In this document: piece after piece, positions 27,936 through 61,971 of the stretch
How positions within the stretch are numbered: the first letter of the stretch is position 1
Layout of the letters: each line of letters starts with the position of its first letter
IMG/VR virus record: IMGVR_UViG_3300025000_000057
Reading direction: 5' to 3' (one strand)
Origin: a virus
Taxonomy: Duplodnaviria > Caudoviricetes
DNA length: 64,000 bases
Translations under genes and position numbers: made by a program
The notes under the pieces: generated by a model
What the model saw: only the letters and a program-made list of their open reading frames with translations
Databases searched by the model: none
What the model was told of the DNA's origin: nothing

Positions 27936-29681
27936 CTATACATCTCCTGTCTGAACCCATATACAAAGATTTAACCAGATAGAAAGTTTCTCACTCCAGA
28001 CTTCTTCTGGTATAGATTTAAGTTGCCAGAAGGCCATGCCATATATACTAACATCGTTAGTATTATATTCTATCCAAGTATGACTATTATGATCATAAGC
28101 TAACCAGGTATTTCTATTGTCAAAACTTAATAAGATCTTAATATCGTATAACTGATTAGGGTCAATCTCTATATCTTCAATCGTAATAGTATCGCTTGTA
28201 TCAATTCGGTTATTATCATCAGTTATCGTAATTTGTTGACTATCAATACAATATAGTTTTTCAGTATCGATTTGCTCTTCAGGTATAGTCTCTTGTCTAT
28301 CGGATGATAGTATTTCTATTTCTATATCGACGGGCTTACTAGATTTTAAATCGCCCATTAAGAAGGTCAGCTTAATAATTTCGAAAGAACTAACGATAGT
28401 CTTAAACGTTAATGAATTTATAAACGAGGTATACGTAGGCAATCTTGATATAATAACCAAACCTGCATTATACCATATATTTGTATTAATAATAGGGTTA
28501 CGTAAATTACCAGCATACGAAGAACCGCCATATCCGCCCCTATTTATATCACCGGCCATACCACCGTAGTAGCCACCACCGCCACCACCGCCAATCTCTG
28601 GATGGTTTTGACCATTGCCTAATATTGTAGTTAAATGCAAAGTTTCTCCACCGGAACTACCGGCGCTTAAATTCCCACCGCCGCCACCGCCACCAGCAAC
28701 GATAATTCTATTTTCTAATTCTATACCGCCTCTTCTAATATCGGTAGCACCGCCACCACCTGCACCAGGCCCTAGCGGCCCGGCATTACCACCGCCATTC
28801 CATCCTCCACCTTCGCCAATAAAGCCCGTTCCATCCCCGCCGACAAATATATATAACTCTTGACCGGAATCTAATAACATTTGACCACGAACATGACTAC
28901 CAGAACCACCAGGGTAAGAATAAGCACCACCTACAGCACCGAAAAGATCTAATTGATAAATTCCTGTAGTTGGTACAATAAAGGTCTGATAATTACCAGA
29001 ACTATTAAATACCGCAGTTTCAACAGCTTCTTCTATACCCAGTAAGGCAAGTAAAGTTATAGCAACCTTACCATATCCAGTACGAATTCCAGGGGTAGTG
29101 ATACCGTTTAGAACTCCACCATAATAGGAGGAACCTCCTCCACCGGAACTACCTCAAGTATATCCACCTCCGCCACCGTACCATCCACCTCCGCCACCAG
29201 AACCATGACTTATTCCATTACTACCGTAACCAAAGCTACCATATGTTCCACTTACTCCTCCTGAACTACCTCCTTGTGTTTGTGTACCTCCACTGCCAGT
29301 AGTTCCACCAATACCAATTAATCCACCACCAGCGCCACCTTGAGCTGTATGAGAGTGTCCAGCTCCGCCGCCAGCAACCAGGATACGGTCATTAAGAGTT
29401 TGTCCTCCTCTTCGTATATCGGTACCACCACCGCCGCCGCCATAAGGACTAGCAAAACCGCCTCCATTCCAACCAGTAGAATTAGGAGCTCCTATTCCTC
29501 CAATATATATATAAAGAGTTTCAGTATCCCCTAAGTTTAAAATACCAGAGGCGTAACCACCGGGAGCTCCATTATTACCACCCTGAGCGCCCCATGTTTC
29601 AAGCTTATATATACCGGGAGGTAGTGTTACTTCTTGTTGACTACCGGTATAGTTAAAATTAAATACTTGTAAATCCACCAC
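27936..29681 (-). CDS. Glycine-rich tail fibre/adhesin (581 aa) with one in-frame UGA at codon 176 (29154-29156); two Gly-rich domains plus C-terminal repeat module
   Basis: Track ORFs 29154-29681 and 27936-28880 are in the same frame. The 91 codons between them have no stop and complete Gly-rich domain 1 (GSSGGGGSSYYGG...GYGKVAITLL) and begin domain 2 (FNSSGNYQTFIVPTTGIYQLDLFGAVGG). GTG start with GGAGG RBS; no RBS before 28880. Confidence 0.8.
29112..29150 (-). promoter_or_regulatory. SECIS-like/readthrough stem-loop downstream of the in-frame UGA (Gly-rich gene)
   Basis: Upper stem GGAGGA/UCCUCC with loop GGU (29127-29141); the loop begins 18 nt after the UGA. Possible lower stem AGUUCC/GGAGUU. 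Confidence 0.55.
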
Positions 29682-38620: not shown

Positions 38621-39469
38621 CTAACTAATAATTACCGCATTTCCTTTACGAGTGGGGATAAAACGCTCATTCCAGGCGCAAAGCTGCTTTACCAACAGTA
38701 CCGTTTCCTCATTTACAGTTAAGTAATATATCTGTACTTCAGAGATTTCTAAACTGATCTTAGATACAATCTCTTCTATATATTTAACATCCAAGGGTTC
38801 CCCAGCATTACGACTCGCTAGGTAATCTTCTGTACTAATCTTTGCGGTACCTCTAATAAGGTTCTGATCTAGTTCTGATACATCCTTGTAAAAGATTATA
38901 CGTATACGAATCTCCACATTAAGGAACCGAGGTTGAAATACGTCAATTCTAGTTCCCCAACCGCCGACCATTCTAGCTGCAGTGGTTACTTGTTTAATAA
39001 GATTTGGTAACTCAGCCGGATCTTTATTAATAACATATATAGAGCCGGAACCGGTGCCGTGAGTATACGCTTTCATAATAACATCATCTACTCCGGGTAC
39101 CGACAGACAAGCAAGACGTACGGCCGTTTCATTAGAGGTAGCCATACTTAACAGTTGTTGACTAATTCGATAACGATACGGTTCATCCTTTTCATCAACG
39201 TATCGTTTACAGTACATCATATATCCTATCGCATCAAGTGCGTCTTCTCCTGCATAAGACAAGAAAGCTTGAACCAGTTCTTTCTTTAATGTGTCATAAA
39301 AACCATCAACATTACTTTCTGAACTCTTAGCAAATTCCTCGTTAAAGATAGCCAGTAGAAGTCTAGTTACTCCGCCACGACTAATCTCTGATAATTCCTC
39401 AGAATTTGCTAATCTATTCATAGCATTTGTCATTATGGTTTCAAAATCCTTGTTGATCTTTAGGAGCAT
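38621..39469 (-). CDS. Baseplate J-like wedge protein (282 aa)
   Basis: EKDEPYRYRI...AVRLACLSVPGVDDV...HGTGSGSIYV resembles Baseplate_J. It lies next to the gp25-like gene. Confidence 0.75.
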   Translation of the reverse strand: MLLKINKDFETIMTNAMNRLANSEELSEISRGGVTRLLLAIFNEEFAKSSESNVDGFYDTLKKELVQAFLSYAGEDALDAIGYMMYCKRYVDEKDEPYRYRISQQLLSMATSNETAVRLACLSVPGVDDVIMKAYTHGTGSGSIYVINKDPAELPNLIKQVTTAARMVGGWGTRIDVFQPRFLNVEIRIRIIFYKDVSELDQNLIRGTAKISTEDYLASRNAGEPLDVKYIEEIVSKISLEISEVQIYYLTVNEETVLLVKQLCAWNERFIPTRKGNAVIIS

Positions 39470-39471
39470 AT

Positions 39472-39879
39472 TTAAACCTCCATTACTTTGATAACCCCGG
39501 AGGAAAGATCTAAACCAATTTCTAAACTAATAGGTTGTGCAAAATAAGGACTGTTAACAAATAAGAAGAACAATATCGTAGTTTTCGATATAGGGACTGG
39601 TCTGATATAGATATCTTTCTTATCTATAAGATCGTCTTCAGTTAGTGCAAAGGTAATCTTATCAATAGTAAGCTGAGCCGTATCGGGACTATTAGGCATT
39701 CCTATGATATCTTCCATATCCGCCCCGATATGATCTAATCTCCAATTAATCCTTACAGCTTTTATCCTATTAATAATAGACTGTAACTGAAATTCCCCTT
39801 CTTTAGCTACGGCCAGATCGTGATCTCGAATGATAAAATCACCGTCCGGAGATATTGCAATATCTTTAGCTACTCGCAT
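39472..39879 (-). CDS. gp25/GPW-like baseplate wedge subunit (135 aa)
   Basis: ATG 39879 with GAGGTG RBS. DIAISPDGDF...QSIINRIK...HIGADMEDIIG...ITFALTEDDLI follows PAAR, as usual for gp25-like genes. Confidence 0.75.
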   Translation of the reverse strand: MRVAKDIAISPDGDFIIRDHDLAVAKEGEFQLQSIINRIKAVRINWRLDHIGADMEDIIGMPNSPDTAQLTIDKITFALTEDDLIDKKDIYIRPVPISKTTILFFLFVNSPYFAQPISLEIGLDLSSGVIKVMEV

Positions 39880-39883
39880 CATC

Positions 39884-40225
39884 TCACCTCGCAACAAAGA
39901 AGTTATTAGAACCGCTTACCATATTTCCGGCCCCTTGGAGATGAATATTCACTCCATCTCCAACTCTTACAATACCCCGACCGTTTACAAATAAACTAGT
40001 ACTAGCCTGTACATTCGTATATCCTGCTCCACAACATGGGCAGGTTGTATAACCTGTATCGCTTAGTCTTGCTGCGGACTTACCGTTAATAAACATATTG
40101 TGACTCCCGGTCACTTGGCCACCCGTAACCGAGTGGCCACCACATCAGTTATCTGGACAACCATGACCATTGTGGTGTCCGACGCTGCCATTCATTCTAT
40201 CACCTATTCTACAAGCTGCTGGCAT
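39884..40225 (-). CDS. PAAR spike-tip protein (113 aa) with one in-frame UGA at codon 27 (40145-40147)
   Basis: ATG 40225 preceded by AGAGGTG. Translation: MPAACRIGDRMNGSVGHHNGHGCPDN*CGGHSVTGGQVTGSHNMFINGKSAARLSD...TCPCCG...FVNGRGIVRVGD...HLQG...SGSNNFFVAR. The track reports only the part after the UGA, which lacks the first PAAR motif. Confidence 0.85.
40116..40139 (-). promoter_or_regulatory. SECIS-like/readthrough stem-loop downstream of the in-frame UGA (PAAR gene)
   Basis: UGGCCACUCG-GUUA-CGGGUGGCCA: 10-bp stem with one G-U pair and loop GUUA. The stem starts 5 nt and the loop 15 nt after the UGA. Confidence 0.6.
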
Positions 40226-40256
40226 TTTATCACCTCTGTACAAAGCTTGAGTTAAT

Positions 40257-40781
40257 TTATGAGAAGAAGTAGTTAGGTGCCGCGAAATACATATTCCCAC
40301 CAGACATCCATTCTACGGTACCTTCATTATCAATCTTTACATTTCCGCCTATTTCTATGTCAGCATTCCCGCCGATGTTAAGGTCGGCATTGCCACCAAT
40401 ATTAACAGTACAATTTCCCTGCGCTTCTAAATAGATATTACCACCTATCTTGGTTAAAATGTTACGGCCAACATGTCTTTCTACATCCTTTTGTATCCAT
40501 TCTCTTAAATATCCGGTGTGATGACGTTCTCCATCGGTAATTAGCGATATGTTAGCTAGGTTAGGATCTAATCTAATACCGACATTAGTACCACAGAAAA
40601 TATCAATACAACCATTGTCTCGTATCTTAACAATACTTGTATTAAAAGGATGTGTTAAAGCTGGTTCGGAACCGGATGGAAACCTTACATTTTCCGCACT
40701 TTGTTTTAGTTCGAGTAACGGGTTATCTGTTGGTTTATTCGCATATTCATTTAAACGTAATGATTGACCCCCGTACGCCAT
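40257..40781 (-). CDS. Baseplate central spike, beta-helix part (gp5/gpV C-terminal-like, 174 aa)
   Basis: 8-residue repeats IGGNIYLE...IGGNADLN-IGGNADIE-IGGNVKID. Directly upstream of PAAR. Confidence 0.75.
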   Translation of the reverse strand: MAYGGQSLRLNEYANKPTDNPLLELKQSAENVRFPSGSEPALTHPFNTSIVKIRDNGCIDIFCGTNVGIRLDPNLANISLITDGERHHTGYLREWIQKDVERHVGRNILTKIGGNIYLEAQGNCTVNIGGNADLNIGGNADIEIGGNVKIDNEGTVEWMSGGNMYFAAPNYFFS

Positions 40782-41175: not shown

Positions 41176-44100
41176 CTACTCTAAATAATGAAATATTGTC
41201 TTATCCGCCGGGATACCAAGAATATCGAAATGTAAATGTGGCTCTTCCTGGTCGCATCCGTCAGCTTTCTTCGCACTGGTACCAATAGTCCCGATTATAC
41301 AGATACTATTATTAAGAGTACGACAGTCGAGTTTTTCACCATGGCTTACTTTAACTTCTCCAAGATTCCCGTATACTGTTTGACTTCCACCGGGATGAGA
41401 GACTATAACATGCTGACCGAGACCACCCGGGCTCGGATCGTTACCTATTTTATTAACAATACCAGAGCAAGCAACGAATACAGGATCGTCTTGATTACCT
41501 GCGATATCGATACCTTTTACGTGAGAATTTTTACCGTTGTTATCCATCCGTCCTATTGAAATTTCGGTAATCTTACGGCTCATTGTAGGCCATCTAAAGT
41601 AACGAGCCCTGGATATATCCATAAGATCGTTTGGCTTATATTCGCTATTTGTACCAGTACCAGGTACTGAAAGTTGACCGGTTGTAGCCGGAGTAAATTC
41701 GTCATAGACAAAACCAAGTCTTTGTAGAATATCTGTCAAATCGTCGTTCCCAGTCCCGGGCTGAGAACCATCTTTAGAAGTGGCACCATTGTCACCGGTA
41801 TTCTCCCATTTTATAATAGGGTCTGGATAATAAAACGGATCTTTTAAACCCGGAATTAACGTTTGGTGACCGTCTATACCAGCAGTATATGGCATCCCTT
41901 TATACCATAATGGGTATATCTTAATCTCCTGCTGATAGCGATTAGTGTATTTATCATATAGTTCACACATACCATTTAATACTAAAACTCCAAAGATGGT
42001 AACAACAAGACCACCTAACATACTTCCTATAGCAGCTGCGGTGGCTCCGGCAGTTAACGCCAACCCTCCGGCTATGGTTCCTAATCCTGAGATAGCTGTC
42101 CTTATGTTCTTTATACTTCTGACAGCAGTCCATACCGTACCGGCTAACTTCGCATTCTTAACGCCGACTACAAATGCTCCAGAAGCAAGCAGGAATAAGA
42201 ATCCGTTAGCAGAGTATTTAGCAAATTGTAAGGCCCGTCTCGATATACCCAAAAGGGCTTTATTTCTTTCACTCCCAGCAATAGCTACCTGTAAATCCGG
42301 TTTAATAGAGGTAATAAATCCTGTATCAAATCCCATATGAATAACGACTCGCCCTATATCGGCCATACCATTCATCTTGGTATAAGCATCGTCGAGATAA
42401 AACTGATCATGTTGCTTAGGTACTTGTCCTAATATTAAAAGTTCTCCCTGATACATACCTCTAAATTTCTCTCTTAAATGGCTGCGGCACATCTCTACAG
42501 CCCGACTTTCGCCCGTAGCAAAACCAAGGAAAGGTAGTATAGTTTCCATAGCGGGAATGGCATTAGGGATAAAGCTATCTTGTATAGTAGTACTATCAAA
42601 GATCTCTGTCTTTTGAAGCTCTCTTTTAATATACTTATCAGCCTTTACTACTTTACTGGTAACTGGTTTACCTTCAATAGAATAGATAGCTGCACAATTA
42701 GTTACTAAATCCGTATTACTAGCGCGGATACCATTATCAATAATATGATAGTAACTATTATAAAGCCAGAATTGACTAAACGGTTTATATAGCTCTTCAT
42801 AATCTTCCTTCTTGGTACCATCCCCGCTCTTAAGTCTTAATGCATATTTTACCGGCCAATGTGGCATCCCGTAAAACAAGGTACTTCTAAAATGGTAGTG
42901 GTGAATGGCTACTATCTTATCCCGTTCTGCAAAGGATATTGTCCTAAAGATATCCCAGGGACTCTTACCACCTATATACATTTGAATACCGCCCTTGCCG
43001 GCATCTTCATCGTATCCGATAAAGCCTAATAACTGACATAGCCAGTTAACACCCGGGTCAGGGTCGTTAGGAAAAGCCGGGTTCCTATCATAGATATTCT
43101 TCATAGTATCATAGGCGCTTATCTTCTTACCACTGTCTATATCGGTACTTCTTTCCGGGTCGCCACCCCAGGATATGTCATCTTCTTTCTTATATACATA
43201 ACCGAAGTGTTCAATACCATAAGGGTTGGCATCTCCAAAGATATAACCGTCTAAGGATTCTGGCATCATTTCCCCTGTAGCGGCTTCTACCTTTTCCTGG
43301 CCACCAACGAACATTTGTTTAGCCTGTTCGACTGTAATAGATTTACCAGTTCTTTCTTTGTATATTTCTATACACCTTTGCCATTGTTCGGGTTTGACTT
43401 GATCGACTGTCATATAACTTGCATAAATACCGGCATTTACACATGCTATATCAAAATGCTCTTCATCTGTTCCAGTCTCTCCTGCGGGATTTACCATTGT
43501 TACACTTTTAATAGCATTTGATAGCTTCTCTGGTGCTTTCTCCAGTTTTCCTTTTTCTATCATACTACTAACCCAGTCTGCAAACGTCTCTGCAAGATCG
43601 ATAGTACTTTTCAATCCTTTAATAAACTCCTGAACGACCATACTATTACCCCAGTGAAACATGAGTCCACGGTGGGCTAGTATCATGTAAAACATTGTCC
43701 ACGGGGTACTGGTTAAATTAAAGATACTGGTTCTTTGATTCTCATCCCACTCTAATATAGGATCGACCAGCTCTATACCATCACCTTGACATATAATAGT
43801 CATATTCTCCCTGGAATCTATGTCTGCTATCACACCATTAAAAGCTGTAGGTAAACATTCTGCAACAGAACCATATCCCATTTTGAGATGCACCCTAGCA
43901 CCGGTCTTTAGACTAATGTTCTTTAGCACTTCGGCTCTTTGTTTTAGAATTGACATATCTATCCGAGGAAAGATATTATTAGCCCAGGTATCTCCTCCCT
44001 TAGCTTTATATCTAAGTTTGGCATTTAGGCTACCATAGATATTCGTAAGAGATATAATAGCAAGGTCTACAGGATTGTCTCGATCTTTGACAGTAGTTAT

Positions 44101-47100
44101 ATTCAACACAGAATGGTAGGTATAAAAGTTTGTCCACGTTCTTCTACCACTTATCCACATACCTTCGTCTAATATCACCATAGCAAAGGTTGGAAATGCT
44201 TTAACGAATCTTCCATCCCAAGAATAAGTAAGCCAATCATGGCACATCTGTCTAGCCAACTCGTCAATACCTTCGGGCTTAGATATGTCCGGAGCTTGAA
44301 CTCTCTCTCCGTAAGGTTTAGTCATTACCGGCGGTGTTTGTGCATAAATCCAATCTGGAAGTTTTTCATCTTTCCAATTAAGGCCTGTACTATCTGTTGA
44401 GTTATATATACCCGAGGACGAACTTACTGCTCCTGTCTGTAAAACCTCGGCCATCGGTAAGTATCTAAAGTAGCGAGAATCTGCACCAAGACTGTTACCA
44501 CTAATTTGAACTACTCCATAAGCTTTACCCTTAGCATGAACAATAGTATTATCGCCTAAGTATATACCAACATGGTCTGGATTGACCGGATCTGGGCCAT
44601 CTCCCCATCTTGTATAAATCAAATCACCTACAGTCAAATCACCTTTGGTTATTTCTTGACACTGTTTCCATTGAGTATAAGTAAGGCGAGTTATATTAAC
44701 TCCAAACTGAGCGAATGTCCATTGTACAAGACCAGAGCAATCGAAAGTATCAGGCCCCTCTGTAGTAACAACATAAGGTTTACCTACTTGAGCCTTAACC
44801 AGTGCTATGAACTCTGTTTTTGTTTTAGAAGAGTTAGCTGTAGGATTAACAGACATTGTAGTTCCGGCAGTTCCGCTGGGAGGAGTCGCTCCCTTTTCTT
44901 TACTTATTATGACAGGCAATCTTTGTCTTCCGAAGTTTAATGCCTCCTGGTGGCTCTTGTAATAAACATCTATCCTATTACCCTTAATGGCCCCGCCGGT
45001 ATCTTCGGCTTTAAACCAGCCTCCATTAGGTTTGTTCTTAAAGTAAGGAATATATACCCAGCTACCCATTGGTATAACATTCCTATCTACAGCAATGGTA
45101 TGCCACTCTTTAACCATAACTCCACTTGCTGTAACACCGTAACCAGGACTCCCCGGAGACTTGCCACAACACTTTTGACAAGCGCAATACGCTGTTATCT
45201 CGAATGTCCTTTGTTCTCCCGGAACTGAAGTTGTAGTATTAGTCGTAACGGTGGTTGTCGAGACTGGTGTAGGTGCGTTAGGATCTATACCAATACCTGC
45301 AGGATAGCTACTATTGATTGTACCTCCATTTACTATAGCTGGATTAACCATTCCGCCAAGATGTAAATAATCGTATTTAACATAAAAGTCAGGATCGACT
45401 CTAAAGCCTGAATAATTCTTACCTCTTAATGCCGGAGAGACAAACACATTAAAATCAAGATCCTTTAAATTACGTTGCCTTCTCTGCGCGTTTATATCGA
45501 GCAGAGCTTGTGCCACTTGATTATACGATGGCAATTCGAGATCCGGGTATAGGTCTAAGTTATTTACAACCTCTTCAGCAACCATAGTCTGTAAGTACTC
45601 GGTAGGCGCATCTGCCATACTATTTAACAGTACGCTTTGTACATTACCTACTAGATTGGTTTTATCATGAAACGGCAGGAAACCGTCAACAGCTTCATTA
45701 TCTTTCTGACTCGGGTCGTAACTGACACAAGCTATAGCAATTCGTGTCATGCCTGGCTCATTTTCTACGGTATCAATTTCTATAGCATGAATCATTACAT
45801 ACTCTACTCCGAATAACTGAACCAGTTCATTCTCTAACTTTACAAAGCCTGAAACTAATTTATCACGATAGTTGATAGCATATTCTTCTGTAAGTTTTTG
45901 CAAGTCAACAAATTGTTTAACAATATCTCTATTCTCTGTCTCTAGCTGAATAAAGATATTAGTATCTAACGATCCCATGTATTGGTGAGACGGATCGGTA
46001 TGCATTTGTAAATGTACCGCACTAAATAAATTATGAGTAGTTAAAGACATGGAATTGATTATTACTTCATCATTTGGTATATCTACCTCTACCATAGCAA
46101 TGCCGGCCGCAATAGAGACTACATCGTTAGTTTCAAGAAAACTACTATCAATAATATAAAACTTAAATGAGCCATTCATATAATTAACAATCGGCTGTAA
46201 CCATGATTGATTCACCCGTCCCAATGCTGTAGGCTGAAGTACTTGCTGATAATACCAACGGAATAATGGATAACAAATCATACGGTCAAGATCGGCATCA
46301 TGCCTTTGGATATATGGCATTACTGTTGTCTTATGCATAATAAGTTCTACAGACAATGTATCGGGGAAGTCCTTATCCGTATATCCAGTTATAGACGATA
46401 GGCATACATTATATATACCAAACACGTCATTAAGTCGTTCATTAACTACAGGTATGATTGGCGTTCTCATGAATTGTGCCAGAAGTGGTCTTAATCCATC
46501 CATGCTGTAAATCTCACCGGCCGGCCCCGCTACCGGGAATCCATTAATCTGCTCGATATCACCAAAGTACAGAGTTAAACGTATCTCTGTTTGGGTATAT
46601 CCACTCTTAGTCTTAATACTACTTTTAGATCTCATGGATTTCATAGTAGACACATTTCCAACAGTTTTAACTTTAATAGAAGTTGGTGGAACAAAGAATA
46701 CGCTATCACCAATACGCAAATGAAATGGTGTTGCTCTGTTACGCCACCCGGGAACGATATCTGTATCTAGTCCGAATAGATCGATTGCATCCCATTTTAT
46801 GAAATCCGTATTGAATGGTTGTATACCGCTAACGGCATCCGTCGATATACCAACGGGCGTCGATGATGGTGGAGGTACTACAGCAGTACCTCCACCGGAA
46901 GTAGATTGATTAATAGCTCTATAGAAAGCAAAAGGATCGATCACTCCATTAGGATCTGCCTTACCGGCCTTATAGAGACTCCAGCTAAATGGATCGTGTG
47001 GTCGTGTATTGGAATCATAGTAGCTATGAGGTTTAATACTTTGCTCTGTTTTAGGAAATCTCCATTTATCGCATAAGTAAGCACATAGCCACACCAATCT

Positions 47101-47397
47101 CGCTAACGAGCCGGCTGTAATAGGTTCGCAAGTTTCAATACCAATACAATTATTACCACCTACGGTATGATGAGCCCGCTCATCATCCGGGATAATATAA
47201 AGTATTTGATTAGAACCTATAACGTAATGAGAACTAGCCGGATAAGGATTATCGTTTTGCATATTTCTTCGTATAATATTAGGGTCGGGTTGATTCACAC
47301 CCGTCCTATGGATAACGATCCCTTGAGGAGTTCTTTTATCACCAGGTCTATTCCTACAAGGACTTAAAAATGCTTCAGTAATAGTATAGCCACTCAT
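41176..47397 (-). CDS. Baseplate hub/tail-associated lysin (2073 aa): Amidase_2, 3D, NlpC/P60 and M23 peptidase domains
   Basis: IVIHRTG...SSHYVI...IGIETC (amidase); FEITAYC...AEDTGGAIKGNRIDVY (3D); FDCSGLV...DHVGIY...IVHA (NlpC/P60); HVKGIDI...PHLHFDI (M23). Confidence 0.85.
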   Translation of the reverse strand: MSGYTITEAFLSPCRNRPGDKRTPQGIVIHRTGVNQPDPNIIRRNMQNDNPYPASSHYVIGSNQILYIIPDDERAHHTVGGNNCIGIETCEPITAGSLARLVWLCAYLCDKWRFPKTEQSIKPHSYYDSNTRPHDPFSWSLYKAGKADPNGVIDPFAFYRAINQSTSGGGTAVVPPPSSTPVGISTDAVSGIQPFNTDFIKWDAIDLFGLDTDIVPGWRNRATPFHLRIGDSVFFVPPTSIKVKTVGNVSTMKSMRSKSSIKTKSGYTQTEIRLTLYFGDIEQINGFPVAGPAGEIYSMDGLRPLLAQFMRTPIIPVVNERLNDVFGIYNVCLSSITGYTDKDFPDTLSVELIMHKTTVMPYIQRHDADLDRMICYPLFRWYYQQVLQPTALGRVNQSWLQPIVNYMNGSFKFYIIDSSFLETNDVVSIAAGIAMVEVDIPNDEVIINSMSLTTHNLFSAVHLQMHTDPSHQYMGSLDTNIFIQLETENRDIVKQFVDLQKLTEEYAINYRDKLVSGFVKLENELVQLFGVEYVMIHAIEIDTVENEPGMTRIAIACVSYDPSQKDNEAVDGFLPFHDKTNLVGNVQSVLLNSMADAPTEYLQTMVAEEVVNNLDLYPDLELPSYNQVAQALLDINAQRRQRNLKDLDFNVFVSPALRGKNYSGFRVDPDFYVKYDYLHLGGMVNPAIVNGGTINSSYPAGIGIDPNAPTPVSTTTVTTNTTTSVPGEQRTFEITAYCACQKCCGKSPGSPGYGVTASGVMVKEWHTIAVDRNVIPMGSWVYIPYFKNKPNGGWFKAEDTGGAIKGNRIDVYYKSHQEALNFGRQRLPVIISKEKGATPPSGTAGTTMSVNPTANSSKTKTEFIALVKAQVGKPYVVTTEGPDTFDCSGLVQWTFAQFGVNITRLTYTQWKQCQEITKGDLTVGDLIYTRWGDGPDPVNPDHVGIYLGDNTIVHAKGKAYGVVQISGNSLGADSRYFRYLPMAEVLQTGAVSSSSGIYNSTDSTGLNWKDEKLPDWIYAQTPPVMTKPYGERVQAPDISKPEGIDELARQMCHDWLTYSWDGRFVKAFPTFAMVILDEGMWISGRRTWTNFYTYHSVLNITTVKDRDNPVDLAIISLTNIYGSLNAKLRYKAKGGDTWANNIFPRIDMSILKQRAEVLKNISLKTGARVHLKMGYGSVAECLPTAFNGVIADIDSRENMTIICQGDGIELVDPILEWDENQRTSIFNLTSTPWTMFYMILAHRGLMFHWGNSMVVQEFIKGLKSTIDLAETFADWVSSMIEKGKLEKAPEKLSNAIKSVTMVNPAGETGTDEEHFDIACVNAGIYASYMTVDQVKPEQWQRCIEIYKERTGKSITVEQAKQMFVGGQEKVEAATGEMMPESLDGYIFGDANPYGIEHFGYVYKKEDDISWGGDPERSTDIDSGKKISAYDTMKNIYDRNPAFPNDPDPGVNWLCQLLGFIGYDEDAGKGGIQMYIGGKSPWDIFRTISFAERDKIVAIHHYHFRSTLFYGMPHWPVKYALRLKSGDGTKKEDYEELYKPFSQFWLYNSYYHIIDNGIRASNTDLVTNCAAIYSIEGKPVTSKVVKADKYIKRELQKTEIFDSTTIQDSFIPNAIPAMETILPFLGFATGESRAVEMCRSHLREKFRGMYQGELLILGQVPKQHDQFYLDDAYTKMNGMADIGRVVIHMGFDTGFITSIKPDLQVAIAGSERNKALLGISRRALQFAKYSANGFLFLLASGAFVVGVKNAKLAGTVWTAVRSIKNIRTAISGLGTIAGGLALTAGATAAAIGSMLGGLVVTIFGVLVLNGMCELYDKYTNRYQQEIKIYPLWYKGMPYTAGIDGHQTLIPGLKDPFYYPDPIIKWENTGDNGATSKDGSQPGTGNDDLTDILQRLGFVYDEFTPATTGQLSVPGTGTNSEYKPNDLMDISRARYFRWPTMSRKITEISIGRMDNNGKNSHVKGIDIAGNQDDPVFVACSGIVNKIGNDPSPGGLGQHVIVSHPGGSQTVYGNLGEVKVSHGEKLDCRTLNNSICIIGTIGTSAKKADGCDQEEPHLHFDILGIPADKTIFHYLE

Positions 47398-58500: not shown

Positions 58501-61292
58501 ATGTTAGGGCTACCAAGGCTCATGTTAATGACATCTACCTTCTGACCATTAGCTCCTCTCCACTTTATCGCATAATCAATTCCTTTAACAACATCTTCAG
58601 TAGGAGCTCCTCCACTATCAAATACCTTAATAGGCAATATCTTAACCGAGGGCCAAGCTACACCGGCCACACCCTCTTTATTATCGCCAATAGCCGCTAT
58701 AGTACCTGTAACGTGGGTACCATGTCCGATCGTATCTTCATCCCACGGAGCGTAACTAACCTCGGTATGTTGAAAGTCTTTATACCTCTTAGCAAAGCTT
58801 TTTCCAGGTAGTATCTTACCCTTAAGATCTGGATGATCTTTATCCACACCACTATCAATAACAGCTACAATACTTTCTTTATGAGAATCTTTCATTACAG
58901 TACCAATGGCAGGCCCGGCCCCGATTTTCTTATAGCCCCATTGTTGGTTGTAATATTCATCATTAGGGGTTTCGTAACTCTTTGGCTCAGTAGCTACTGT
59001 GGTATCATCCTCGCCCTCTATCTTCCGCCATACTTCGGGATGCATTGGTCTTTGTGGTTTTAATAGTTGGCCAATAGTTGCATTAAGTAGTGGGCCTATC
59101 AATGGAAACTCCTCAAGTTCAGGTGTTCCACCGGTTAATAGGTATGGTCTATCTTTATAATGTTTTTCTTCAAAGTGATATGGTTCAGTTACGAAATGAC
59201 GTAAAGGAGCTAATGGGTATCGAGGAGTAGGATAAGGTGCGTTAGCAAAGTATTCACCCTCACTCCCGTACTGAGTATCAGTATATTCATAATGAGATTT
59301 AGTACGTCTTACCCAATTTGGTGAGTAATACATCGTCCGGCTGCCGGTTAGTGGCGTATTTCCCATAAACCACCAACGACCTTTTCTTATCGGAACTTCT
59401 CCTTTTTCCCAGAACTCCTCGGTTTCTTCCTCGGTATCGTCAAGATCGAAGAATCTACCTATCAATGGAAATTCTGCAATCTGCTCGCCACCGGGTAAAA
59501 GGTTCTTAACTTGTTTAGCCATGTCTGTTATACCAAGTACATCTTTAACTTTGGCTATACCCGTACTTACCTCTGAATAACCTTCAGCTATCATATCATC
59601 CGGGCGAATCCCTGTAAGATTCTCAGTTTCATAATTCATATAATCCCAAGCTTCAAGTCCGGCCCATACAGGTACAGCTCTACGCAATACCATGTTAAGA
59701 AATATATCAGCCCCACTTTTCCTATGCTCGGCAGATAAACCTAAACGAAATGTAGCCAAGGCTGCATCTAACCTAGAAAAGAAATAATAAAACGGCACTG
59801 ACAGTGTAGTTGTATCTTCTGGACGATCTCTATGAGCGAAGAATTGCTTTGTAATATCTATAGGATTTTCATAGCGAATGCTACGCATAAAAAGCCAGTT
59901 TGTTTCACTTTCTTCTTGTCCGGCTCTACCCCAGGTGGAACCGAAAGGTCTACCGGAGAAAAGACCACGATTCTCGTACGGAAGCATGTGCTTCCAAAAC
60001 ATATCAGCTGGCTTTGCTATAATATCTGTTAGAGCATTCGTTATATCAAATTCTCGATTATAATCATCTTTTTGCTGGTGACCTATATCAAGTTTCCTAG
60101 TGAACCAGGCCCAATGTTTACGCCATCCACTAGTAGGATATTGGTAATCTTCAGGTTTTGGTAATCCGGCACCGCTAATTCCTTGTAAGAATGTCCGCCC
60201 AGGGCCGACCTTCGCATTTATTAAATAACCTTTGATGGGTGCTTTACTTGCATCTTCTACATCATGAAGCATATCATCAAGCATTAGATAAAGTTTCTTT
60301 GTAGATTCTCTACCGGATAATACAGGTTGTATTTCATCCGGACTCATAAGATGAATCATTGGTCTATCTCTAACATTTAACATATCTCCAACGTGAAACA
60401 TTGCCAGCGGATTAAAGTTTACAAACGGTAACCCGAAATCAGTTTCCATAGAATTGAGTACCGACTTTCCTACCTTAGGCCAATAACGCAAATCGTGTAA
60501 TTTACTTGCCTCGTCGATAAAAACCCAAGGGTCTGCCATTTTATTAAATAGATTTTGTTCACCCAGTTCTACTCTGTACTTAGAGATTATGTCACGACTA
60601 TTTAATCGGTTTCTATTGAATAAAGCACCTTTACTATTTTGGTGATTCCAAAGATCGCCTACGGTAGCCCGACGCATACCGTACTTTCTAAGATCTGTTT
60701 CACGCATCTCTTGTGTGTACTCGTTATAACTAGAAAGAAACTGTTTAGTTTTATCCTGAACAATACGTTGTCTTCTAGTATCGACCGTGCGAGCATGCTC
60801 CATTACTCGTTCAGTTTCTCTGAGCCGCCGTTCTATATCAAGATCGTCTGTAATAAGCTTACCACCAGTAACGCCTCTTTGCATTAAATTAGCTCTTTTA
60901 GCAGCAATCTTATTGGATAACTCTGTCATACTTTCTTCCCAGCCGGCCCCGAGTATACCGTGACTACCAAGGAGTTTATCTTTAAGAGTACTATATTGAT
61001 CCCATGGTAATGGCCCTTTAGCCCACTCTTTAACAGAAGATAGTATAGCATCAGCTTCGGTAGGCCTAAACCTTCCCATAGCTTTAATAAAGCTTTTAGA
61101 GATATCGTTAAAAGCACCTCTTCTAAAAGCATGTCTACCTCCAAGGAATAAAGCAGTACCTATACCCGTAGTAGTCAAAAAGGTTCGCAATGGCGAACCT
61201 TTATTCTCGTAGTAATGATCTGGGTTTAGGTATTTATGATGTTCAGGATTTCCGTCTATACTTTCTTTCCAAAAGTTGTCGTTGGACGGCAT
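55506..61292 (-). CDS. Tape-measure-like giant protein (1928 aa) containing an S8 subtilisin-like protease domain and an SNase-like segment
   Basis: ATG 61292 with GAGGAG RBS. Follows the chaperone pair. S8 motifs VAVIDSG, HGTHVTGTIAA, AASGNE, SGTSMATPHV. Gly/hydrophobic segments typical of tape measure proteins (GMIVGGLFGGFMGYLAG). Confidence 0.75.
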   Translation of the reverse strand: MPSNDNFWKESIDGNPEHHKYLNPDHYYENKGSPLRTFLTTTGIGTALFLGGRHAFRRGAFNDISKSFIKAMGRFRPTEADAILSSVKEWAKGPLPWDQYSTLKDKLLGSHGILGAGWEESMTELSNKIAAKRANLMQRGVTGGKLITDDLDIERRLRETERVMEHARTVDTRRQRIVQDKTKQFLSSYNEYTQEMRETDLRKYGMRRATVGDLWNHQNSKGALFNRNRLNSRDIISKYRVELGEQNLFNKMADPWVFIDEASKLHDLRYWPKVGKSVLNSMETDFGLPFVNFNPLAMFHVGDMLNVRDRPMIHLMSPDEIQPVLSGRESTKKLYLMLDDMLHDVEDASKAPIKGYLINAKVGPGRTFLQGISGAGLPKPEDYQYPTSGWRKHWAWFTRKLDIGHQQKDDYNREFDITNALTDIIAKPADMFWKHMLPYENRGLFSGRPFGSTWGRAGQEESETNWLFMRSIRYENPIDITKQFFAHRDRPEDTTTLSVPFYYFFSRLDAALATFRLGLSAEHRKSGADIFLNMVLRRAVPVWAGLEAWDYMNYETENLTGIRPDDMIAEGYSEVSTGIAKVKDVLGITDMAKQVKNLLPGGEQIAEFPLIGRFFDLDDTEEETEEFWEKGEVPIRKGRWWFMGNTPLTGSRTMYYSPNWVRRTKSHYEYTDTQYGSEGEYFANAPYPTPRYPLAPLRHFVTEPYHFEEKHYKDRPYLLTGGTPELEEFPLIGPLLNATIGQLLKPQRPMHPEVWRKIEGEDDTTVATEPKSYETPNDEYYNQQWGYKKIGAGPAIGTVMKDSHKESIVAVIDSGVDKDHPDLKGKILPGKSFAKRYKDFQHTEVSYAPWDEDTIGHGTHVTGTIAAIGDNKEGVAGVAWPSVKILPIKVFDSGGAPTEDVVKGIDYAIKWRGANGQKVDVINMSLGSPNINPGYSDAIKRAYNSGIVVVAASGNEYQTEHVGSPAIYPEAIAVGAVGPNMKKADFSNSGAGLDVVAPGVDIASTLPEDSQMGSMYGVSSGTSMATPHVAATAALLKTQRPDLTPAEIKFLIQSTAVDLEEDGWDKETGHGLVNAYTATSILSGMSDEERELIRKGGSLESEQINKERIALINAIRESGITKAAFETVGKSLVDKYNREIKNPVDTDMAILQTWENVKEFGGFYGFSTELLYDTGKGIEPQIATARAMSSYRREFWDTELGGIPGDINEIARRFIGHREKWENRYNPVPNTMPDWLPGEEYFTDFKTGDPYVKIRRGEMRLPGEAYESLHPDTAAEVEKALEDPEIRRKLEAGEIHRGELYGPISRFRILADVAPWSTQYDEASKFVTEMKKTKEQEQEVKEIRKQVKDRNDPIRLYPYRFKDKETKSETVTVTKVLDDWEDSHDYFFYTKEYPDNPIKLAGLRVPMSKEKAGARQFLNKYIKPGEQVTIEYTADDVTKINDDTYKTISAVVYTGNENLNRQLLEQDLANEKDNDFTPAGIVARFTPSERAMGQAWEKFAHLDTPFHTKLLQVRSPIESYKRRDLYGKDWQMWQDPWEDYVVPTYQSIMSKGMIVGGLFGGFMGYLAGRKRFGKIIATGLGAVLGGTGGAYFTGHEFVTGETWVPERRKKEWETHEYYDMLKYLKNVSLYNKYAQEALDTEKFDVKKYLQEKDEQKKIDSKRTNELESAKRDIKGTTDNVDVNEWITKLNLTGNPRDERELIKLINQELTKLKAPKKEEKLTPLAQKALDYYNESKSTMYGHKPQDPLKDLLRAIPKKERQYLEGFINATPDEREELRDIMSPYMKRIVQEAWGEKASEKQSLLEYFKAHFLPDPEWGGWREDVNLNNVKVKYIKAESMDPSEFDIWPDDEIAANEPNVPPAPKINIHETANTIKSKLQSILGGAGIDAEIQIEPNDTGQLSVEVETQRDIRQDIANCMNNYSSLVLG
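61179..61202 (-). terminator. Intrinsic terminator-like hairpin inside the 5' end of the tape-measure-like CDS
   Basis: AAAGGUUCGC-CAUU-GCGAACCUUU then UUGAC (a run of 5 U overlapping the stem base), 41 nt after the stop of the 242-aa gene. Confidence 0.55.
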
Positions 61293-61971
61293 TGAATAAC
61301 TCCTCATTTTCCGTAGGATTTTCCCACTCTATACCGTTTATAAAATCCCTTTGACCAACAATGAATGGGAATTTTAAATAGTTCTTATCCCAACGTGATT
61401 TATCTATCGTTAGCATCGGATCTATACCCGCTGCTCTCATTTTCTCAGTCATTTCTTTCTTAGATGATTTCTCTTCGTCATTAAATGTAACGCTAAGACT
61501 ATACCCGGGTATAGAGTATACCTTATTGATAAGATTTAGTTTATACTCAGCTTCAGCTACCTTTTTCCATAGCTTTGCGGCATCCCAGTCGCTCATTTCT
61601 TCTATACTAATCTCTGGGAAAGCTGTACTTATCATAAGTTCGGCTTGATGTACTTTATTATCTTCTATCTCTTGTCGATAGAATTCATAAAGGTACCGAC
61701 TTTGATTAGGATCTCTATATCCAGACTCATCGTATATTAAAGGAAAGAGTGCTTTAGCCACACCAGCTTTATACACACTCCAATTTACTACCGGGTAAAG
61801 TACGCAAGTAGAACAGACTACATCTTCCATATCCATTTCGGATAACCCTAATCCAGCTATAAACTTATTTTCTTTTCTTGTTAGAAGTCTCCAGATGTAA
61901 TATTCATTACCGATCTGCGTACAGAATAATGGGTTGTGTATCTTCTTAAGTTCCGCAATAATCCTTTGCAT
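61243..61971 (-). CDS. Tail assembly chaperone-like protein (242 aa)
   Basis: IWRLLTRKE...EDVVCSTCVLYP parallels IWRSISRTE...EEMITELCTLWP in the upstream gene. Lies between the tube-like and tape-measure-like genes. Overlaps the next gene by 50 nt. Confidence 0.6.
   Translation of the reverse strand: MQRIIAELKKIHNPLFCTQIGNEYYIWRLLTRKENKFIAGLGLSEMDMEDVVCSTCVLYPVVNWSVYKAGVAKALFPLIYDESGYRDPNQSRYLYEFYRQEIEDNKVHQAELMISTAFPEISIEEMSDWDAAKLWKKVAEAEYKLNLINKVYSIPGYSLSVTFNDEEKSSKKEMTEKMRAAGIDPMLTIDKSRWDKNYLKFPFIVGQRDFINGIEWENPTENEELFNAVQRQLLERKYRRKS

Follow-up and report, generated by a model that had tools for sequence, protein, structure and literature searches.

The stretch analysed here, referred to below as the window, comprises 64,000 nucleotides of DNA from a virus of the class Caudoviricetes (IMG/VR record IMGVR_UViG_3300025000_000057), in which the gene for a PAAR protein, the tip of the tail spike, is interrupted at codon 27 by an in-frame TGA. 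It is well supported that this UGA is decoded, in a conserved, RNA-linked and site-specific redefinition. Bacterial-type insertion of selenocysteine (Sec) is the best single explanation and the most likely mechanism, to which we assign a probability of roughly 0.55. The features that carry the argument are the following (positions such as +9 and +18 are counted from the U of the UGA):

40230..40237, minus strand: strong Shine-Dalgarno site AGAGGTGA of the PAAR gene, read directly
39884..40225, minus strand: PAAR spike-tip gene of 113 codons, one of them the in-frame TGA, followed by a stop (Pfam, AlphaFold, Foldseek)
40145..40147, minus strand: in-frame TGA, codon 27 of the PAAR gene, called recoded; present in every assembly and at a conserved column in the relatives L002/L012 and L013
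40116..40139, minus strand: hairpin 1, +9 to +32, with a 10-bp stem (40139..40130 with 40125..40116) and loop GUUA, from folding
40100..40114, minus strand: hairpin 2, +34 to +48, GUGAC-CGGGA-GUCAC, from folding; invariant in three TGA lineages
39884..39886, minus strand: terminator TGA of the PAAR gene, at a conserved C-terminus

A sequence-only reading of the window had reported a strong ribosome-binding site with an ATG at 40225, a single TGA in the frame at codon 27 and, 5 nt after it, a 10-bp stem with loop GUUA, in what it took to be the sole PAAR gene of the window. These observations hold: AGAGGTGA occupies 40237..40230, the start codon is the ATG at 40225..40223, folding returns the stem, and a genome search found PAAR in single copy in the whole 137-kb record of the phage as well (family profile, 36.4 bits). 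The TGA does occur only once in the PAAR frame, which reads MPAACRIGDRMNGSVGHHNGHGCPDN-TGA-CGGHSVTGGQ..., but it is not the only in-frame TGA of the window, as a second lies at 29156..29154. The read-through product contains all three PAAR repeats (motifs PAACRIGD, SAARLSD and IVRVGD) and matches the Pfam family PAAR_motif (PF05488) over residues 34–92 (44.4 bits; cut-off 27). Its AlphaFold model has a mean predicted local distance difference test score (pLDDT) of 91.7 and a predicted template-modelling score of 0.84. The first 26 residues contribute strands to the cone (pLDDT of 97 for residues 1–10), and confidence is lowest in the His/Cys loop (pLDDT of 64, residues 21–30). The top six Foldseek matches of the model are all PAAR proteins (probability 1.00; template-modelling scores of 0.69–0.77 by target; 80–117 aligned columns), with c1882 (4JIW), VCA0105 (4JIV), phage P1, T4 gp5.4 (4KU0) and phiKZ gp163.1 as the best structural matches, whose alignments span 110–117 columns and thus nearly the full length. 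Judged by the model, the read-through product is a complete PAAR cone. It resembles the tips VCA0105, c1882, T4 gp5.4 and phiKZ gp163.1 in fold, in its three repeats, in its gp5-like beta-helix neighbour and in a His/Cys cluster near the apex. Unlike the phage gene, none of the described PAARs has an in-frame stop codon, and the phage clade also differs from them in carrying both C-x-x-C-type and C-x-G-H-type ligand motifs, with UGA replacing the second Cys.

The TGA is a fixed feature of this DNA. It is present in European Nucleotide Archive (ENA) and Logan assemblies of groundwater runs; in two groundwater samples, Logan contigs match the window exactly across 901 bases that include the TGA, and a 447-nt contig from the sediment metagenome of a separate study covers positions 39718–40164 with zero differences. 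Since several assemblies, samples and studies agree, we rejected sequencing or assembly error as its source. At the same column, TGA is also found in L013 (38% GC, same gene order; CPN-TGA-CNGH) and in L002/L012 (64% GC; CPN-TGA-CSGH), whose PAAR proteins are 72–75% identical to that of the window (68–75% over the three TGA lineages) and whose start codons in L013 and L002 are likewise preceded by GGAGG-type sites. Outside the RNA element described below, the three lineages use the same codon at only 6 of 57 invariant residues, and synonymous sites are therefore saturated. A codon-sized insertion or deletion just upstream of the TGA leaves the frame intact, the window protein having one extra residue before the UGA (C-P-D-N-U) compared with CPN-U in L013 and L002. 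Across codons 28–37, the family residues C-x-G-H-x-V-x-G are kept although the codons for them differ at synonymous positions (TGT/TGC, GGC/GGT, CAC/CAT, GTT/GTG/GTA), which argues that these codons are translated. At the other end, four lineages finish the protein alike at ...FFV(A/N)R-stop, with TGA, TGA, TAA and TAG as their stops. Because TGA terminates the protein there, the decoding at codon 27 is local and context-dependent, and does not reflect a changed code. The closest relative without the TGA (P0156 on L017, 61% identity) has a loop shorter by 5 residues (HPVWGH), which lacks Cys23, the TGA and Cys28. Gene callers had given the PAAR genes of all three TGA lineages as fragments of 70, 81 or 86 residues. 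A candidate for a fourth truncated PAAR, P0135 on L016, was rejected as an ordinary bacterial PAAR with a mis-called start.

The RNA that follows the UGA is structured beyond the needs of its codons. The minimum free energy (MFE) of the two-hairpin element is −25.3 kcal/mol (z = −3.2 against dinucleotide shuffles). When codons were resampled synonymously with each phage's own codon usage, the native 60 nt were more stable than the resampled sequences in the window (z = −4.2; p = 0.0005), L012 (z = −2.0) and L013 (z = −1.5). Hairpin 1 keeps nine of its 10 pairs in L013, with two two-sided changes (C-G to U-A and C-G to A-U) and two one-sided ones; in L002 its outer six pairs are kept and the top is rearranged. 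Its pairing falls from 89% to 29–56% once one strand is slid. At the apex, G-G-U occupies +18..+20 in the window and L013, and L002 has GGUC at +21 to +24 in an alternative fold. The codons of hairpin 2 (GTG ACC GGG AGT CAC) do not differ between the window, L013 and L002, even though the two AT-rich phages otherwise use GTG, GGG and CAC in a minority of cases. At invariant residues, the same codon is used at 8/15 positions within codons 28–47 versus 6/57 elsewhere (Fisher p = 0.0009). The L017 lineage has neither hairpin and no surplus structure (z = −0.07); the hairpins are absent where the TGA is absent, and the UGA and the element therefore go together. By these comparisons, selection acts on synonymous sites of the RNA that follows the UGA. 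The claim of the sequence-only reading that the UGA is decoded and that the hairpin is part of the signal is thus upheld, by the TGA of three lineages, the modelled N-terminus, the selection on the RNA and the absence of both hairpins from L017. The alignment of homologues that it had proposed as a check yielded the conserved TGA and compensatory hairpin changes, but no significant covariation with three sequences.

In the proposed mechanism, the PAAR gene is one continuous frame in which the two-hairpin element at +9 to +48 redefines UGA codon 27 locally. Host SelB carrying Sec-tRNA(Sec) would bind a hairpin of the phage mRNA and deliver Sec at the UGA, and the terminal UGA of the gene, which lacks such an element, would terminate normally, to give a PAAR cone of 113 residues. 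Sec would complete H-x-C-x-x-U beside Cys28 and His31 in L002 and L013. Its column appears to correspond to the second Cys of the His/Cys cluster in most PAARs, so Sec would probably be a metal ligand at the spike tip. We infer the decoder (SelB with Sec, as opposed to another tRNA), the choice of hairpin that would bind the factor and the metal-ligand role alike. We favour Sec because it alone covers together the persistence of TGA across a long divergence, the Cys of homologues, the invariant hairpin and the likeness to selenocysteine insertion sequences (SECIS) of Bacillota. The fuller proposition, that the single spike-tip PAAR of ~220-kb jumbo phages of anaerobic Bacillota is a virion selenoprotein that holds Sec as a metal ligand by way of a two-hairpin SECIS, has in our judgement even odds.

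Homologues supply one of these arguments. Counted from the N-terminal H-x-C anchor, 94 of the best 150 homologues read H-x-C-x-x-C-x-H, and 18 more of the best 150 have two neighbouring Cys (CC) ahead of the His. The sequence in L013 and L002 is H-x-C-P-N-U, so that the UGA completes H-x-C-x-x-[U]. The homologue P0086, from a bacterial contig, reads HNCPGCCSG..HDV where L002 reads HNCPNUCSGHDV, that is, C-P-G-C-C for C-P-N-U-C. A correspondence between Sec and Cys thus appears to exist, though the alignment of the loop is not unique.

Another argument comes from the SECIS themselves. A published model of bacterial SECIS (bSECIS) requires a loop of 3–9 nt, an upper stem of 4–16 bp, an MFE of <= −7.5 kcal/mol, a G in the first two loop positions followed by G or U, and a UGA–loop distance of 16–37 nt (PMC13188914); this model is permissive. 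Hairpin 1 has loop GUUA and 10 bp (−25.3 kcal/mol for the element), at a spacing that is borderline (15 nt by count), and hairpin 2 has loop CGGGA and 5 bp at a spacing of 35 nt. With bacterial Sec genes (E. coli fdhF; FdhA and SelD of Moorella and Desulfofundulus), the phage gene shares an in-frame UGA in the coding region, a GGU-apex hairpin ~18–24 nt downstream, Cys in homologues at what appears to be the UGA column, and a layout in which a spacer hairpin precedes a second one, known from SelD mRNAs in the candidate host clades. It differs from them in encoding a virion protein and not a redox enzyme, in having loops GUUA/GUAA and CGGGA instead of GGUCU, in an apex 4 nt nearer to the UGA than that of FdhA, in an invariant second hairpin that has no known counterpart, and in the lack of linked Sec machinery.

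The window is part of a jumbo phage of ~220 kb. Only three C/T differences (at 47017, 7072 and 7051) separate it from the 137-kb fragment that is the IMG/VR record G000, so that the window derives from a different assembly of one phage population; a near-identical genome, CACUYJ010000001.1, has 219,483 bp. Comparison of the baseplate protein places the phage closest, among cultured ones, to Bacillus phage 0305phi8-36 (38% identity), Moorella phage MTATph1 and Bacillus cereus jumbo phages. Its genes include those for a class III anaerobic ribonucleotide reductase NrdD (413 bits) and an NrdG-like radical-SAM protein. The nearest NrdD homologues (51–55% identity) belong mostly to anaerobic Bacillota (metagenome-assembled genomes of Clostridia, Desulfofundulus australicus, Desulfovirgula, Thermoanaerobacteraceae), and from this likeness, which is circumstantial, an anaerobic member of the Bacillota is the candidate host. 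Four of the five Bacillota genomes with the closest NrdD contain a full-length selB (375–403 bits; cut-off 242) together with a tRNA-Sec match (72–76 bits); selD has one in-frame TGA in all four of these genomes that were searched, as does FdhA in 9/9 searched genomes of the Desulfofundulus family. The FdhA SECIS of this family consists of a G+C-rich 6–9-bp stem closing GGUCU, with GGU at +22 to +24. In the SelD SECIS of the candidate host clades, a first hairpin stands right after the UGA and a second one has GGUCC at +36 to +40. As a separate observation on NrdD, its profile match (G000:C1:112420-115806, minus strand) falls in two pieces (positions 1–151 and 150–562) with ~400 residues between them in one open frame of 1128–1143 residues, which suggests an intein or a large insertion.

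The second in-frame TGA of the window is also followed by a hairpin with a GGU apex:

29154..29156, minus strand: in-frame TGA in a glycine-rich (ALK_LTK_GRD) fibre domain; a single Pfam match spans it
29127..29141, minus strand: hairpin GGAGGA-GGU-UCCUCC after the second TGA, GGU at +22..+24

This TGA joins two called open reading frames (ORFs; 27936-29681, minus strand) into a 589-residue protein with two ALK_LTK_GRD domains. The match that spans it (163 bits) covers residues 24–217, with the TGA as residue 184 and no start codon in the 91 codons after it. The GGU stands where it does in 11 genuine FdhA SECIS of the Desulfofundulus family, and the 3' strand of the hairpin consists of two UCC codons (6% of Ser codons). 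When the glycine-rich domain was sought in cultured phages, it was not found. To put the two sites in a genomic context, we counted TGAs followed by a perfect stem of at least 5 bp with a loop of 3–6 nt and an apex GGU starting at +16 to +24. Such a structure follows 41 of the 4069 TGA trinucleotides of the phage genome (1.0%), both in-frame TGAs (+18 and +22), 11/11 genuine FdhA Sec sites and one of 13 TGA terminators checked. The one terminator is G000:C1:122428 (minus strand), which ends a 251-residue ORF whose next stop lies 7 codons on. The second SECIS-like site, in a tail-fibre domain, may perhaps be used too, in which case it would tie the assembly of host-contacting parts of the virion to host selenium metabolism.

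A number of observations weigh against Sec. The sequence-only reading had suggested looking for sel genes elsewhere in the phage; selA, selB, selD, tRNA-Sec and a tRNA with a UCA anticodon were not found in ~186 kb (~85%) of the 219-kb genome, including the 137-kb G000 and a further 36 kb of CACUYJ010000001.1 up to an RNA island, with ~33 kb remaining. Specifically, a UCA anticodon occurs neither among the 11 tRNAs of G000 nor in the further 36 kb. The Sec machinery would be that of the host, for which NrdD likeness suggests candidate clades. In the nearest full-length phage-type homologues, the motif is [IV]-Y-C-x-G-H, in which, by the C-terminal anchor, the conserved Cys is preceded by Tyr; alignment of the loop at the UGA column is ambiguous, and model confidence is lowest there. 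On the RNA side, the most stable hairpin 1 of L002 is in a shifted register, covariation among the three sequences is not significant (it was reached in 60/500 shuffles), the CGGGA loop of hairpin 2 lacks the G-U that SelB reads in known SECIS, and Rfam returned no match to the element at gathering and E-value thresholds. (A search of viral, metagenome and genome collections with the hairpin-2 DNA pattern gave a single match, L015, which is a chance one.) At the second site, the fold is not significant (z = −0.5 and −1.0), homologues have D, G, H, V or N, with neither Cys nor Trp among them, and the GGU-apex definition was set after both sites had been seen. Finally, TGA is scarce as a terminator of late genes, as detailed below; this scarcity fits a cell with leaky UGA better than it fits Sec, and Sec-independent read-through gives an easier account of both the second site and the bias in terminators. 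The Sec reading therefore comes out of the analysis with support from the Cys of homologues, its approximate fit to the permissive bSECIS model and its likeness to Bacillota SECIS, and weakened by the absence of sel genes from the ~186 kb searched, the Tyr of the nearest phage-type homologues, the non-Cys column of the second TGA and the few late TGA stops.

The usage of stop codons bears on every reading. Genuine TGA stops number two in the window (39884 and 61243), as compared with 16 TAA and 9 TAG (including the downstream end of the glycine-rich gene), and both are backed by TAA or TAG within 5 codons. TGA ends 2/26 late genes in the window and 2/14 in the 64%-GC relative L012, where TAA is favoured (8 of 14 called genes); by arithmetic from base composition, this depletion has p ~0.01–0.04 in each of the two. 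In L013, TGA stops are not depleted (2/10), and on the opposite, non-structural strand of the phage 9/42 ORFs end in TGA. Across the 137-kb record, 15 of the 113 ORFs end in TGA, some of them 36–42 codons short of the next stop, and in L013 a 128-residue gene stops at a TGA in an ATGA overlap. The long genes of the window (17,837 codons) contain 267 TGG versus 2 in-frame TGA, and reading TGA as sense raises coding coverage from 92.3% to 93.5%. We rejected a genome-wide code 4 or 25, since long ORFs are intact in table 11, TGA stops exist and the gain in coverage is negligible.

The main rival, possible though less probable than Sec, is programmed read-through independent of Sec, in which a near-cognate tRNA, most likely tRNA-Trp, as happens in Bacillus subtilis and E. 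coli, would decode the UGA at low efficiency and the hairpins would stimulate it at the mRNA entrance of the ribosome; it would serve to set dosage, so that a strong late operon yields a single PAAR for each virion. Hairpin 1 starts 5 nt past the UGA, and a spacing of ~5 nt is typical of read-through and frameshift stimulators. The few late TGA stops, the back-up stops within 5 codons of the window's two, the residue-tolerant column of the second TGA and the Tyr at the PAAR column in the nearest phage-type homologues all accord with leaky UGA. The loop of the L017 relative contains a Trp, which is a weak point, as MAFFT places a 5-residue deletion there. We know of no established case of structure-stimulated UGA read-through in bacteria or double-stranded DNA (dsDNA) phages, and UGA-U, the context found here, is reportedly the strongest UGA termination context in E. 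coli (Poole et al. 1995). Furthermore, a plain roadblock would not require an invariant hairpin 2, loop included; keeping TGA over TGG across a long divergence requires a benefit; and the Cys of homologues and the likeness to GGU-apex SECIS would be coincidence. Cultured relatives of the phage infect Bacillota, and wild-type B. subtilis is stated, in the account of PMC7918605, to read UGA as Trp at ~6% (citing Karow et al. 1998). Counted jointly with its suppressor-tRNA variant, Sec-independent read-through amounts to a substantial minority possibility.

That variant, which by itself is improbable, is an incipient code change, in which a phage-encoded UGA suppressor tRNA expressed late would make TGA mean Trp (or Gly) in late genes, after most late TGA stops had been shed and while only two in-frame TGAs had yet accumulated. 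It matches the early stage of TGA recoding described by Borges et al. (bioRxiv 10.1101/2021.08.26.457843), in which standard-code relatives have very few TGA stops, a suppressor tRNA is gained and in-frame TGAs appear first in structural and lysis genes. The difference between the late genes (2/26) and the opposite strand (9/42) agrees with such a stage, the ~33 kb outside the tRNA search leave room for the tRNA, and the phage does have odd tRNAs and a tmRNA. The ~186 kb searched yielded no UCA-anticodon tRNA, in-frame TGAs are two against 267 TGG with the small gain in coverage given above, and TGA ends PAAR at its conserved C-terminus in two lineages as well as the 128-residue gene of L013. 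A general suppressor would, moreover, require no local RNA element and would leave the retention of TGA in three lineages unexplained. The TGA-recoded (code 4) Agate and Jade clades (10.1101/2021.08.26.457843) resemble the phage in having in-frame TGAs in structural genes and few late TGA stops, but they have many in-frame TGAs, suppressor tRNAs and no local RNA signal, whereas the phage has two sites and no suppressor found, and its TGA still terminates.

Very improbable is expression in pieces, by a stop at the UGA followed by re-initiation at GTG codon 38 or ATG codon 44, or by a bypass from Asn26 to Asn43. A GGUG(G/A) stands 4 nt ahead of the GTG, which itself is GTG in each of the three lineages, and GTG38 or ATG44 is where gene callers place the start. 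The Asn codons flank a 48-nt stretch that begins with the stop and holds the hairpins and GGGAG, an arrangement that recalls T4 gene 60. We rejected expression solely from GTG38 or ATG44 and, as the main route, both re-initiation after the stop and a gene-60-like bypass, as codons 1–37 are conserved and the N-terminus is in the fold: codons 28–37 are translated, the indel upstream of the TGA keeps the frame, the N-terminal 26 residues belong to the cone, and ATG44 is TTA in L013. The AUG within UGAUG was also rejected as a start, since it is an automatic product of UGA plus a Cys codon and opens a 19-codon out-of-frame ORF. As for a pseudogene, or the nonsense mutation or sequencing error that the sequence-only reading had kept as an alternative, a single in-frame stop is formally a broken gene and 0305phi8-36 has no PAAR here, but independent assemblies, the sediment study and the relatives carry the same TGA, in three lineages under purifying selection on both sides, so that this explanation is refuted for practical purposes.

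The known viral selenoproteins include the glutathione peroxidases of molluscum contagiosum and fowlpox viruses. These are captured eukaryotic enzymes with a SECIS in the 3' untranslated region, whereas the phage case would involve a bacterial-type SECIS in the coding region of a structural protein. Viral selenoproteins are described, in the account of PMC8310308, as virus-encoded genes that depend on the Sec machinery of the host. The literature searched contained no report of a selenoprotein encoded by a phage or of a PAAR whose stop is recoded, and the words phage, virus and PAAR are absent from a 2026 review of prokaryotic selenoproteomes (PMC13188914). Programmed UGA read-through in phage Qbeta (A1), alphaviruses and murine leukaemia virus (MuLV) likewise decodes a UGA at a fixed site to make a minor virion protein. 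It extends a complete protein at its C-terminus, whereas the PAAR stop stands at codon 27 and the short product cannot function; read-through in Qbeta, unlike that in alphaviruses and MuLV, requires no structure. We know of no dsDNA phage with programmed UGA read-through. In animal viruses, a stable structure starts a few nt downstream of the stop (reviewed in PMC13517186).

If Sec is indeed inserted, this PAAR would be the first candidate selenoprotein of a phage particle; phages could then use the host's machinery for the 21st amino acid to make a structural protein, the metal site of a membrane-piercing tip would contain selenium, phage infectivity could hinge on selenium supply, and gene callers would systematically shorten such genes. 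If the read-through is instead independent of Sec, it would be, as far as we know, the first case in a dsDNA phage of programmed UGA read-through that is conserved and tied to an RNA structure, and a dosage device for a protein present in one copy per virion. On either reading, the 48-nt element would be a compact cis signal.

The neighbours of the PAAR gene are consistent with its assignment:

40257..40781, minus strand: upstream neighbour, gp5-C-like spike beta-helix protein (Pfam Gp5_trimer_C and Gp5_C, both under cut-off)
39472..39882, minus strand: downstream neighbour, sheath-initiator-like baseplate protein (weak Pfam Sheath_initiator match)
38621..39469, minus strand: Baseplate_J protein, next after the sheath-initiator-like gene (Pfam)

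All genes of the window lie on the minus strand, with products that include proteins 1933 to 3482 residues long. L013 shares the gene order giant lysin, gpV-like, spike, PAAR, baseplate. The gp5-C-like spike gene is at a position syntenic with gp149 of Bacillus phage 0305phi8-36, and a gp5-like spike beta-helix is the partner that carries PAAR. The PAAR protein is thus encoded beside a gp5/VgrG-type spike, which it presumably caps. Profile searches detected no PAAR in phages 0305phi8-36 and MTATph1, and in the former (L018, 66362-67360) gp150 directly joins the spike gene gp149, with no PAAR between. Peptide patterns found no PAAR relatives in IMG/VR and JGI metagenomes, and a sequence search of the Protein Data Bank gave spurious repeat matches only.

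Several further features of the phage deserve mention. In its cluster of 11 tRNA genes (G000:C1:107930-110947), two Leu(UAA) tRNAs and one Leu(UAG) tRNA are only 77–81 nt long and lack the long variable arm of bacterial tRNA-Leu. A gene-poor RNA island of CACUYJ010000001.1 (~79.9–82.0 kb; L030:1046-1130 and L030:2549-3130) holds a 582-nt tmRNA (Rfam, 59 bits) and a tRNA-like gene with G3:U70, A73 and CCA, whose 11-nt anticodon loop, CGCCUAGGCUC, includes CUA; neither was called by ARAGORN. Within the gene for a 2073-residue giant lysin-like tail protein (41176..47397), a 12-bp perfect inverted repeat (GGUGGAGGUACU ... AGUACCUCCACC, ~46830–46870; −23.9 kcal/mol on the antisense strand) lies in a stretch that encodes GGGTAVVPPP. 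Lastly, the 242-residue gene 61243..61971, which ends in the other TGA stop of the window, overlaps by 65 nt (61243–61307) with the ATG chosen for the 1933-residue tape-measure-like gene, and this overlap could be either a mis-placed start or a chaperone-type frameshift site.

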